From: a virus
Strand: one strand, 5' to 3'
DNA length: 11,455 nucleotides
UHGV virus genome: UHGV-0118720
Every line of letters begins with the position of its first letter. Position 1 is the stretch's first letter. The notes under the pieces were generated by a model. The model did not search any database, was not told the DNA's origin, and worked only from the letters and a program-made list of their open reading frames with translations. Below are positions 6,808 to 9,539 of this stretch, piece after piece. The position numbers and the translations under genes were made by a program.

Positions 6808-6996
6808 ATGGCACGAACAATGCTCTATAAGCCTGGCAACATGATCACCTGTGGTCAGTTTGCTGTCGATTACATCATTGTTGATGACGAAGAAGTTAAA
6901 TCTCACCTGAAAAAAGGTTGGGTAAAAACTCCTGAAGAAACCGCAACGAAGCAAAAAGTGGCTAAGGCGGAAGAAGATGGCGAAAACGAAGGGTGA
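6808..6996 (+). CDS. Hypothetical small protein (62 aa) between the coat and gp4-like genes
   Basis: ATG at 6808 preceded by GGGAGAAGG (6797-6805). The ORF track's TTG start at 6769 lies inside the terminator hairpin and is unlikely. The 3' end overlaps the gp4-like gene start by 20 nt in another frame. C-terminus is Lys/Glu-rich. Confidence 0.45.
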   Translation: MARTMLYKPGNMITCGQFAVDYIIVDDEEVKSHLKKGWVKTPEETATKQKVAKAEEDGENEG

Positions 6997-7438
6997 TCTC
7001 GTTCTAAAGGCTTTACGAAAAGCCGGGCTGTATTCCAATGCCACGTTGACAGATGCTGACCCTCAGGCAATTGAAGATGCCATTAATGACCTCGAAGACA
7101 TGATGGCAGCATGGCAGGCGAAAGGTATCGAGCTTGGGTATCAGTTTGCTGATACAGAAAACGGCATCATGCCGTTACCTGACGATGATTCAGGTATCCC
7201 TGCATGGGCAAATGATGGCGTCGCTTTGAAACTCGCTGTGCAAGTGTGCATGGATAACGTCATTCAGCCGTCGGATGCTCTCCTTACCGCTGCTGACTGT
7301 GCATATCAGACAATCTGTATCGCTTTAACCAAAATACCACCACTTGAGCGGCGAAATGACATGCCTCGCGGTAGTGGTAACAAAAGCGCGTTTACGTGGA
7401 ATCGGTTTTACATCGAGAAAGATGATCCGAGTACGTGA
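6977..7438 (+). CDS. Head-to-tail adaptor / portal-closure protein (P22 gp4-like)
   Basis: 153-aa ORF. The N-terminus KTKGDLVLKALRKAGLYSNATLTDADPQAIEDAINDLEDMMAAW and C-terminal PRGSGN motif match my recollection of P22 gp4. It is syntenic between the coat and gp10-like genes. Confidence 0.88.
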   Translation: MAKTKGDLVLKALRKAGLYSNATLTDADPQAIEDAINDLEDMMAAWQAKGIELGYQFADTENGIMPLPDDDSGIPAWANDGVALKLAVQVCMDNVIQPSDALLTAADCAYQTICIALTKIPPLERRNDMPRGSGNKSAFTWNRFYIEKDDPST

Positions 7439-7447
7439 GGTGAATAA

Positions 7448-7552
7448 ATGCCGATTCAGCAACTTCCGCTTATGAAAGGTGTCGGCAAAGATTTCCGAAA
7501 CGCTGACTATATCGACTATCTGCCAGTGAATATGCTGGCAATTTTGATATAA
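7448..7552 (+). pseudogene. Truncated 5' remnant (34 codons) of the gp10-like tail-hub gene, displaced by the insertion
   Basis: RBS GAGG at 7437-7440, then [31 protein letters not shown] followed by ILI and a stop. The first 31 codons align codon-for-codon with the start of the full-length gene at 8121; similarity ends exactly at 7540/7541. Confidence 0.8.
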
Positions 7553-7553
7553 T
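7545..7553 (+). promoter_or_regulatory. Candidate extended -10 promoter element (TGaTATAAT) for the endonuclease gene
   Basis: TG at 7545-7546 and a perfect TATAAT at 7548-7553, about 36 nt upstream of the endonuclease ATG. No good -35 is seen, which extended -10 promoters often lack. Motif match only. Confidence 0.35.
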
Positions 7554-7588
7554 AAGTACATGAAAAATCGAAACTTTAAGGAGTAGAT

Positions 7589-8173
7589 ATGCTTTCTGAG
7601 AATGCTAAAGATATACCTGGATTTGAAGGTGTTTATGCCGTAACAGAAGATGGCAGGGTATATTCTCACTCACGTGTTGTTAAGGCTGCGCATGGCAGCA
7701 CGCAACTCAGAAAGGGGCGCTGGTTAAAGCCTAAAATCAATCAGGGAAGGGTGCTTTATAATATCGGAGCAAAATGGACTTTTGCCCATCGAATCGTTGC
7801 AATGACATTCCTGCCAAATCCTGAAAACAAGCCTCAGGTAAATCATATTGATGGCAATCCACTCAATAATAACGTCAATAATCTTGAGTGGTGCACTCAA
7901 AGCGAAAACATCAAACATGCATACGCCACCGGATTAAAGAAGCCAATCAAGTTTTTCGGAACCAAGCACCCAAAACACAAGTTGAGTGATGACGATGTTC
8001 TTGCAATCAAGTCATCAAAAGAAAGCTTGTCAGTAATTGCGGCTAAGTACGGGATATCTAAGACCTGGGCAAGTAGGCTAAAGCGTGATGCTAACTGGGT
8101 TCATATAAAGGTTGATTCCAATGGCAATACAACAACTACCACTAATGAAGGGATTGGGGAAAAGTGCGGTTAA
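7589..8173 (+). CDS. HNH homing endonuclease (NUMOD4-like N-terminal motif, HNH_3-type catalytic core, C-terminal HTH-like DNA-binding module)
   Basis: Own RBS AAGGAG at 7578-7583, 5-nt spacer. Motifs: IPGFEGVYAVTEDGRVYS (NUMOD4-like), HRIVAMTF...VNHIDGNPLNNNVNNLEWCTQSENIKH (HNH core), LSDDDVLAIKSSKESLSVIAAKYGISKTWASRLKR (HTH-like). The last 18 codons overlap the gp10-like gene start out of frame. Confidence 0.85.
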   Translation: MLSENAKDIPGFEGVYAVTEDGRVYSHSRVVKAAHGSTQLRKGRWLKPKINQGRVLYNIGAKWTFAHRIVAMTFLPNPENKPQVNHIDGNPLNNNVNNLEWCTQSENIKHAYATGLKKPIKFFGTKHPKHKLSDDDVLAIKSSKESLSVIAAKYGISKTWASRLKRDANWVHIKVDSNGNTTTTTNEGIGEKCG

Positions 8174-9539
8174 TGCTGATTATATAGACCAACTTCCAGT
8201 CAATCTTTTAGCTACGCCCAAGGAGGTGTTGAATTCATCGGGATATCTTCGCTCATTCCCGGGCATTGCAAAACGTTCTGATGTGAACGGTGTATCTCGC
8301 GGCGTCGAGTACAACATGGCGCAGAATGCTGTTTATCGTGTGTGTGGTGGCAAGCTGTACAAAGGAGAAAGTGAAGTCGGTGACGTTGCCGGAAGTGGTC
8401 GCGTATCAATGGCGCATGGTCGTATATCACAGGCGGTAGGGGTTAACGGGAAACTGGTCGAGTATCGCTATGATGGCACGATTAAAACCGTCTCAAACTG
8501 GCCTACAGACAGCGGATTCACGCAGTATGAGTTAGGATCAGTCCGCGACATTACGCGCTTACGTGGGCGTTATGCGTGGTCAAAAGACGGCACTGATTCA
8601 TGGTTTATCACTGACCTTGAAGACGAATCGCATCCTGACCGTTACAGCGCACAATATCGCGCAGAATCGCAGCCTGACGGCATCATCGGCATAGGAACAT
8701 GGCGAGACTTCATCGTCTGCTTTGGTTCATCGACGATTGAATATTTCTCCCTGACTGGCGCAACCACAGTTGGTGCTGCTTTGTATGTCGCACAGCCATC
8801 ACTGATGGTGCAGAAAGGCATTGCCGGGACTTACTGCAAAACGCCATTCGCTGATTCGTATGCGTTCATCAGCAATCCGGCAACAGGTGCGCCGTCTGTA
8901 TACATCATCGGCTCCGGTCAGGTGTCACCAATCGCCAGCGCGAGCATTGAGAAAATCCTCCGCTCCTACACTGCTGATGAACTGGCTGATGGTGTGATGG
9001 AATCGCTGCGATTTGATGCTCATGAGTTGCTGATTATCCACCTTCCGCGCCATGTTCTCGTGTACGACGCATCTTCAAGCGCCAATGGTCCGCAATGGTG
9101 TGTGCTGAAAACAGGTCTGTATGACGATGTGTACCGCGCTATCGACTTCATTTACGAAGGCAATCAGATAACGTGCGGCGATAAACTGGAGTCCGTGACC
9201 GGGAAATTGCAATTCGACATCAGCAGCCAGTACGACAAGCAACAGGAACACCTGCTGTTTACTCCACTGTTCAAAGCGGATAACGCCAGATGCTTCGATC
9301 TGGAGGTGGAATCATCCACTGGCGTAGCTCAGTACGCCGACCGCCTGTTCCTCTCTGCAACCACTGACGGCATAAATTACGGGCGTGAGCAGATGATTGA
9401 ACAGAATGAACCGTTCGTTTACGACAAGCGTGTTTTGTGGAAGCGTGTCGGGCGCATCAGGAAAAACATTGGCTTCAAATTGCGCGTTATCACGAAGTCA
9501 CCTGTCACTCTGTCTGGCTGCCAGATAAGGATTGAGTAA
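8121..9539 (+). CDS. Tail hub / needle-socket protein (P22 gp10-like), full length with a chimeric N-terminus
   Basis: 472 codons from ATG 8121; the ORF track's 8112 start is TTG and less likely. From about codon 32 ([19 protein letters not shown]...) to the end it matches my recollection of P22 gp10. The first 31 codons are a recoded variant of the upstream remnant. Confidence 0.9.

Follow-up and report, generated by a model that had tools for sequence, protein, structure and literature searches.

A likely mobile homing endonuclease cassette that brings its own gene start into gene 10 of a P22-like phage

I-HmuI of the Bacillus phage SPO1 is an HNH nicking endonuclease whose gene lies inside a group I intron. 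Closer to the case described here are the mORFs of fungal mitochondria, which bring a foreign gene terminus with them; the passages of PMC3630166 that deal with them, citing Paquin et al. 1994, name atp6 of Allomyces macrogynus and atp6, atp9, cox2 and nad3 of Glomus. The free-standing endonucleases of T4-like phages (Seg, Mob) are mostly intergenic and cut hundreds of base pairs away, and mobE in nrdA and mobA in gene 39/60 split these genes into polypeptides that reassemble (PMC2988022). We analysed an 11,455-nucleotide stretch of viral DNA, the UHGV virus genome UHGV-0118720 (here called the window; all features named lie on its + strand), in which an endonuclease gene and a second, strongly diverged gene start precede the body of gene 10. 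We consider it likely that positions 7541..8240 form a mobile homing endonuclease cassette, which has settled in a P22-like phage, inside the protein-coding part of its essential gene 10, and has its own gene start; how it would move is deduced from sequence comparison.

The window is a virion-gene region of a P22-like phage (Lederbergvirus), and it was matched best by prophages of E. coli and by phages including Kapi1 and CUS-3. In the endonuclease-free relatives Kapi1, HK620 and Sf6, gene 10 lies directly 3' of gene 4. In the window, the native codons 1-31 of gene 10 are left as a remnant at 7448..7540, which matches Pfam Phage_stabilise positions 1-28 and the gene 10 starts of these relatives. 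The remnant is followed by an AT-rich leader of 48 nucleotides (7541..7588, 23% G+C) with elements conserved in five cassette lineages, by a free-standing homing endonuclease gene (7589..8173) and by a recoded block (8121..8240) that is borne by the cassette and replaces codons 1-40 of gene 10. The functional, full-length gene 10 (8121..9539) encodes the packaged-DNA stabilisation or head closure protein gp10 of 472 amino acids. When the window was compared with endonuclease-free relatives, codons 1-40 of gene 10 were 61-63% identical, whereas the sequence thereafter was about 95% identical, with a synonymous divergence (dS) of 0.2-0.3 and a nonsynonymous divergence (dN) of about 0.01. For codons 41-472 against the endonuclease-free Kapi1, dS was 0.31 and dN was 0.008. 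The original prediction, which had been made from the letters of the window, let the diverged segment end at 8213, but the divergence runs on to 8240 at codon 40 and stops sharply before GGATATCTTCGC. A ribosome-binding site, a start codon and codons 1-40 of gene 10 all come with the cassette, and these are fused in frame to the recipient codon 41 onward.

Gene 10 is not divided by the insertion. Its functional open reading frame (ORF) alone covers positions 1-469 of 469 in Pfam Phage_stabilise (E=7.5e-299) and matches PHROG 578, head closure Hc3; the remnant duplicates residues 1-31, and there is no complementation of the kind seen in a split gene. The element also lies outside any intron or intein, since gene 10 restarts at its own ATG as a complete ORF of 472 amino acids. 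No Rfam intron match was obtained in 6900..8600 at E<=1. The ATG of gene 10 (8121) sits 53 nucleotides within the endonuclease ORF and has the ribosome-binding site AAGG at 8108..8111. Both the RefSeq annotation of identical prophages and an alignment with all gp10 homologues favour it as the start; the program-made list gives an ORF of 475 amino acids, which begins at an in-frame TTG three codons 5' of this ATG (8112..8120).

The endonuclease has 194 amino acids and is I-HmuI-like, with a NUMOD4 and an HNH_3 domain. It matched Pfam HNH_3 (E=1.9e-10) and NUMOD4 (E=1.3e-8), PHROG 59 HNH endonuclease (E=3.9e-53) and, over the NUMOD4/HNH core, the structure of I-HmuI (PDB 1U3E, E=1e-8). By these matches it is a nuclease of a recognised homing endonuclease family. 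The two enzymes have this core in common and are of comparable size. However, there is no group I intron at this locus, and the endonuclease is not an intron-encoded nickase like I-HmuI. Its last approximately 21 codons are a read-through into the gene 10 start in another frame. Between lineages, the ratio of nonsynonymous to synonymous change (omega) was 0.05-0.08, indicating strong purifying selection on the endonuclease, and its G+C content at third codon positions (GC3) was 0.41.

Among the described systems, the mORF is the closest kind. As in the mORFs (PMC3630166), the endonuclease ORF lies in a protein gene without an intron, flanked by a diverged copy of the displaced end, here the block with 62% identity to native alleles, and by the native end that is left as a remnant. 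The remnant still resembles the endonuclease-free relatives, and the inserted end is of foreign or untraceable origin. The mORFs, however, are mitochondrial, code for LAGLIDADG or GIY-YIG enzymes and take the place of the 3' (C-terminal) gene end, whereas at this locus the 5' end is replaced by an element with a NUMOD4/HNH enzyme in a temperate enterobacterial phage. Because the 5' end is replaced, the cassette must provide a ribosome-binding site and a start codon. The cassette works like a mORF in 5'-end mirror image and is not a member by descent.

With the intronless homing of T4-like phages (PMC2988022), the locus shares a free-standing gene and a patchy occurrence among related phages, and probably also spread by break repair with co-conversion of flanking markers and a carrier allele that is resistant by sequence differences. 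In contrast to the genes split by the T4 enzymes, gene 10 remains one uninterrupted ORF of full length, thanks to the duplicate 5' end that the cassette brings along. A further likeness is to the engineered HomeR and cleave-and-rescue drives (PMC7968924, PMC6442612, bioRxiv 10.1101/2023.11.29.569221), in which a nuclease is directed against an essential gene, is inserted at the cut and is accompanied by a recoded, resistant copy of the disrupted part. The engineered drives are synthetic, guided by CRISPR RNA and used in diploid insects, whereas the cassette is natural, has a target recognised by a protein and resides in a phage. The home-and-rescue parallel is one of logic, by analogy, and not of ancestry. 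The literature that we searched contained no description of this cassette or of an endonuclease in gene 10 of P22-like phages, nor anything specific on such gene-start replacement in phages.

The cassette was present in 18 of the 913 complete E. coli genomes that have the gene 4/gene 10 locus, always at the same junction. It was also found in 27 IMG/VR contigs, in 8 metagenome contigs and in the Salmonella phage UPF_BP1. The junction common to the carriers reads ...CTGGCA|ATTTTGATATAATAAG, and most P22-like phages are without the cassette, so that it is present or absent at one fixed site. Gene 4, encoding the tail accessory factor or head-tail adaptor (6977..7438; Pfam P22_Tail-4, E=8.7e-41), is the left flank, which is the recipient phage's own and lies outside the cassette. 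Among carriers of the same cassette with other backgrounds, the gene 4 region was 57-63% identical. Phages with only 54-66% identity in their coat and gene 4 regions had 700-nucleotide cassettes that were 98.9-99.9% identical, and across 26 IMG/VR carriers the block hardly varied, its two main haplotypes being one synonymous base apart.

The phage UPF_BP1 is a mosaic around the insertion. Its gene 4 is 100% identical to a P22-type phage, and the block is followed by about 270-300 nucleotides of E. coli-type gene 10 before the sequence is again 100% P22-type, which places the right crossover at about nucleotide 266-300 of gene 10. The first approximately 19 codons of its remnant are P22-type and the rest is cassette-linked, placing the left crossover inside the remnant. 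By these boundaries, the mosaic reads as a co-conversion tract centred on the insertion. An element that is far more alike than its flanks, with recombination boundaries at the element, is what horizontal spread leaves behind. A scan of genome contigs with the endonuclease, one genome per species, yielded no relative above 49% identity; the cassette is absent from these species representatives, and they revealed no donor lineage.

Sister cassettes occur between gene 4 and gene 10 of four more distant P22-like lineages, one of them nearest to a Proteus phage, with endonucleases that are 83, 82, 72 and 69% identical to that of the window (P0021, P0022, P0023, P0025). The remnant is cut short after ...LPVNML(A) in four of the five lineages, L256 being the exception with an earlier end at codon 26. 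Between each block and the remnant of its own lineage, identity is 53-66%, with no identical run above 8 nucleotides. The L255 cassette resembles that of the window in its block (84% identical) and endonuclease (81%) to a similar degree. In this comparison, the proportions of synonymous (pS) and nonsynonymous (pN) differences were 0.54 and 0.07 for the block and 0.58 and 0.08 for the endonuclease, and pN was 0.21 for gene 10 codons 41-86. Since the block diverges like the endonuclease and unlike the rest of gene 10, it travels with the endonuclease. An independent replicate is provided by the L257 lineage, where eight endonuclease-free relatives matched the L257 remnant at 93-99%. Against the L257 block they matched at 48-53% in nucleotides 1-60, 58-67% in nucleotides 61-93, 85-89% in nucleotides 94-120 and 93-97% beyond, so that the block of this lineage departs from the native allele only up to codon 31. 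The cassette architecture is old and conserved.

A codon-by-codon recount of the remnant (7448..7540) against the block (8121..8213) gave 9 identical codons, 15 with synonymous differences and 7 replacements (P2A, V12L, D15S, F16A, R17V, Y24Q, M29L), just as originally reported. At the nucleotide level, 61 of 93 positions are identical (65.6%), and the differences are distributed 8/3/21 over the three codon positions. The proposed check of dN/dS, made by the Nei-Gojobori method, returned a saturated pS of 0.95 and a pN of 0.17. The statement that almost every wobble position had changed went too far: among the 22 conserved codons that have synonyms 15 are changed, and 14.4 +/- 2.1 are expected at saturation. 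When the block codons were drawn at random for the block's own protein, 62.1 +/- 2.6 nucleotides were expected to match the remnant, as compared with the 61 observed. Any trace of a shared nucleotide origin of remnant and block has gone, and they do not avoid each other's codons beyond chance either. As the divergence equals the random expectation, age alone explains the saturation. The longest identical run between the two copies is 5 nucleotides, and a DNA repeat finder did not detect the pair. Over codons 1-31, GC3 is 0.26 in the block and 0.52 in the remnant.

The block is the cassette's own old gene 10 allele. It has passed through many phage backgrounds along with the endonuclease, and by drift its synonymous sites have become completely saturated against whichever native allele it displaces. 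Its nucleotide sequence was found only together with the endonuclease, with the exception of one chimera described below. The original prediction had offered two explanations for the recoding, a donor allele from a diverged lineage or selection to escape self-cleavage, and had set aside a recent duplication. It was borne out in part. The diverged donor is essentially right and takes a sharper form, namely that the block belongs to a mobile cassette and diverges in step with its endonuclease; its rejection of a recent duplication is supported; and the escape from self-cleavage holds for the junction-side codons only. The block variants L12, S15, A16, V17, Q24, L29 and V36 each occur singly in natural endonuclease-free alleles, and A2 does not. 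A search with the 54-residue recoded N-terminus against a set of 5.8 billion proteins returned 19 short fragments only, all at or below 85% identity, and the carriers' own gp10 was not returned either. Phage SEN22 was considered as a closer donor for its 90.6% identity over residues 18-49, and was rejected because it proved to be a normal, if diverged, allele whose record has a frameshift. In that record (KT630648; L014 about 1790-1840), the one-base frameshift lies near codon 16 and gene 10 is annotated from a downstream start. The allele L195 was likewise dropped as a chimera, since it is chimera-like in protein and not at the nucleotide level.

In the E. coli strain AVS0578 (L262 1150..; NZ_CP124374 1849847..), an endonuclease-free gene 10 has native codons 1-19 followed by block codons 20-40, with the crossover in the micro-homology GAyTATAT. 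This allele is what recombination between remnant and block with loss of the endonuclease, or rescue-only repair, is expected to produce, and by its sequence it is a candidate for a resistant 'footprint' allele. Rescue-only or functional resistant alleles are a known failure mode of the engineered drives, and AVS0578 looks like one. In E. coli ES5 (L007 2652..3235), a frameshift splits the endonuclease into two ORFs of 84 and 108 amino acids, whereas the remnant, the block and gene 10 are intact; this endonuclease is a decaying copy. Together, the two strains fit the usual cycle of invasion, decay and loss. In the complete E. coli genomes, one chimeric or rescue-only allele stands against 18 carriers, and none occurred among 34 further block carriers, which suggests that the low homology between remnant and block keeps loss rare.

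The saturating divergence might even be maintained actively, if selection acted on the element to keep the homology of remnant and block low. There would then be no deletion between direct repeats, and a broken end would invade the remnant so that the whole cassette is copied and not just the rescue. This is consistent with identical runs of only 5-8 nucleotides in all five lineages, with the scarcity of chimeric alleles just given (one against 18 carriers, 0/34 further block carriers) and with a crossover in AVS0578 that lies at the best available micro-homology (GAyTATAT). In addition, engineered drives recode their rescue copy against cleavage (bioRxiv 10.1101/2023.11.29.569221). However, the identity of the two copies in the window is not below the random synonymous expectation (P=0.13-0.57), old age and base composition (GC3 0.26 vs 0.52) suffice as an explanation, and there is no young cassette with a partly diverged block that would show the trajectory. 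We regard such selection as possible but doubtful, and prefer the view that an old allele of the cassette has drifted to saturation.

How the cassette would home can be pictured from the layout of its two gene starts. The I-HmuI-like enzyme would cut or nick the endonuclease-free gene 10 at a site across the insertion point, at about codons 26-36. The break would be repaired from a cassette-bearing genome, with the remnant as the left arm and gene 10 from about codon 41 as the right arm. The cassette genome would be immune, having no complete site in either copy: the remnant would offer the left half-site and then the leader, and the block an altered left half (M29L, TTA for L30) before the near-native codons 32 onward. 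The divergence of the remaining block codons would not be needed for immunity. With no identical run above 5 nucleotides, the copies would not readily recombine, and the low homology would hinder both the deletion of the endonuclease and the copying of the rescue alone.

Several observations bear on this site. A native 39-mer spanning the junction had no match in the window at up to 3 mismatches. Since the intact native codons 1-31 persist as the remnant, a target wholly inside them would be self-destructive, and since the L257 block has its boundary at codon 31, the target would have to span the junction. All five blocks are altered at codons 27-30, replace M29 (ATG to CTT, TGC or CTG) and use TTA for L30, and the remnants that reach codons 28-30 all keep AAyATGCTk. 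From these comparisons and from the AVS0578 chimera, in which the block is kept from codon 20 on, block codons 24-31 (QLPVNLLA, 8190..8213) on the junction side are the putative immunity determinant, as native sequence here would re-create the full target against codons 32 onward. The earlier proposal of an escape from self-cleavage is plausible for these codons, about 24-31. It does not extend to the other two-thirds of the segment, because native codons 1-31 persist as the remnant. The opposite extreme, that no recoding in codons 1-31 can serve immunity, was also dropped, since the block boundary of L257 is codon 31 and junction-side codons must matter.

It is unlikely that all 31 codons were recoded under selection for escape from self-cleavage by the endonuclease. 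Such selection would account for the differences of all five blocks from the native sequence at the junction-side codons, including the replacement M29L/C, and in L257 the block adjoins near-native codons 32 onward, so that some change was needed against re-creation of the site. But a site within codons 1-31 would still be cut in the unchanged native copy of the same genome, so that changes can matter near the junction only. In the AVS0578 chimera, codons 1-19 are native, and the divergence is uniform and equal to random codon choice. Moreover, the DNA contacted by an HNH enzyme of the I-HmuI kind is a few tens of base pairs long and not 93 to 120. An immunity confined to the junction-side codons of an old allele agrees better with these findings.

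The remnant ORF continues through ILI to the TAA TAA stops at 7550..7555 (34 codons) and retains the ribosome-binding site of gene 10. It is as polymorphic as the native alleles, with 17 haplotypes in 25 contigs, and is in frame with the same junction in every one. In homing it would act as the upstream (left) homology arm. The leader that follows contains the extended -10-like sequence TGATATAAT (7545..7553), the conserved AATCGAAAC (7566..7574) and the ribosome-binding site AAGGAG (7578..7583). The elements TGnTATAAT, AATCGAAAC and GGAGTAGAyATG are kept in all five cassette lineages despite diverged surroundings, and TGnTATAAT stands just 3' of the junction in each of them. From its sequence, TGATATAAT is a putative promoter. 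In one carrier (L018), TATGAT stands in place of TATAAT. A prediction of consensus RNA structure for this conserved leader gave none. The last 20 nucleotides of the remnant (7521..7540) are the native palindrome TGCCAG-TGAATATG-CTGGCA, and together with the T-rich start of the cassette (ATTTTGATAT to 7550) they score as an intrinsic-terminator-like hairpin. This hairpin is not kept in the L255 or L257 cassettes and is probably incidental, although the palindrome falls in the predicted target.

The remnant could instead be retained for a function of its own, as a 34-residue peptide, for translational coupling to gene 4 or as a transcription signal for the endonuclease, but we consider this improbable. 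In its favour, none of the carriers examined has a broken or out-of-frame remnant, the gene 10 ribosome-binding site is kept, and the native 3' palindrome of the remnant (7521..7540) forms the terminator-like hairpin with the T-rich beginning of the cassette. However, even a remnant without a function would be intact, since homing would rebuild it from a functional recipient gene each time. In addition, the L256 remnant has only 26 codons, the hairpin is not conserved in L257 or L255, and the stop positions of the remnant vary among the lineages. We therefore keep to the remnant as a homology arm that homing itself would renew. A recent tandem duplication of the gene 10 start within the genome, after which one copy changed by rapid local mutation or by relaxed drift, would explain the colinear copies in the same orientation 673 nucleotides apart, but is hardly conceivable, since the copies differ at a saturated pS of 0.95 when dS between the adjoining gene and its relatives is only about 0.3, it is the functional and conserved copy, nearly invariant across carriers, that has diverged, the same block occurs in unrelated backgrounds including a Salmonella phage, and diverged cassettes have a common architecture, all of which bears out the original judgement that this is not a recent in-genome duplication.

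Some points weigh against the reading of 7541..8240 as a homing cassette that rescues the gene it enters. The position of the target, the choice between cut and nick, the promoter and the role of the homology arm are all read from sequence. The test for divergence beyond random codon choice was negative in the window (P=0.13-0.57) and lends no support to selection for low homology. A strict scan for sigma-70 -35/-10 elements found no promoter. The search for a donor that had been suggested led to the cassette lineage itself and not to its ultimate source: none of the natural endonuclease-free gp10 N-termini exceeds 69% nucleotide identity to the block, the best endonuclease-free allele having this value. 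Finally, M29L need not be specific for the cassette, since the natural endonuclease-free alleles L193-L195, L203, L204, L206 and L209 (IMG/VR) have VNLL instead of VNML at codons 27-31. Such alleles are possibly resistant by nature, and if so would speak for an arms race with the endonuclease family.

A quick survey of 134 other loci with NUMOD4/HNH_3 homologues (L041-L174) addressed the generality of the arrangement, which it turned up at four loci that were checked by eye. In a Treponema metagenome-assembled genome (L166, 2729..3665), a 35-codon 5' remnant of a helicase-like gene is followed by the endonuclease and then by the gene in full. Three further contigs, from other bacteria or phages (L134, 781..1888; L142, 2422..3723; L127, 984..2604), have a duplicated, codon-diverged 3' gene end after the endonuclease. 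The third codon positions differed by 48-71% in the three pairs compared at nucleotide level (L166, L134, L142). Judging from these four loci, not only P22-like phages but also unrelated phages and bacteria may host HNH elements that colonise essential genes by a third route besides introns and inteins, with a promoter, a nuclease, a fully codon-diverged substitute for the gene end that is displaced and the native end as a homology arm. Such an element would be a natural home-and-rescue drive, its divergence selected as a block to re-creation of the site, to deletion of the endonuclease and to rescue-only repair. We put this wider view forward tentatively, at somewhat less than an even chance.

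The gene 10 cassette itself would show that a homing endonuclease can inhabit an essential structural gene of a phage without a splicing element, by means of a replacement gene start. It is ready for experiments, as there are carriers in several backgrounds, the isolated phage UPF_BP1 close to the tractable P22, sister cassettes, a decayed endonuclease and a candidate resistant chimera. It also offers a natural system for two questions of gene-drive research, the extent of rescue recoding that is needed and the frequency of resistant alleles that arise by rescue-only repair.

A paralogous NUMOD4 endonuclease, 55% identical, lies between gene 10 and gene 26 in other P22-like prophages (L009 4662..5195; L010, L041-L051 and phage HZ41), and some genomes have both this gene and the gene 10 cassette. 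The window does not contain it, since gene 10 there runs directly up to gene 26 at 9539. The paralogue shares the leader AATCGAAAC..AAGGAGTAGATATG and the first residues MLSENAKDI. At its loci, the 3' end of gene 10 (..PVTLSGLSIRAT*) and the first gene 26 codons diverge from those of the window, and no remnant was detected there.

For the annotation of phage genomes, sharp mosaic boundaries in virion genes can be footprints of an endonuclease. In the UPF_BP1 records (KX776161 / NC_047875; L001 2283..3593), gene 10 is mis-started, being annotated from an internal ATG 108 nucleotides downstream of the true start (locus position 2175), and the remnant is left unannotated. The annotation pipeline PGAP labels the remnant a pseudogene.

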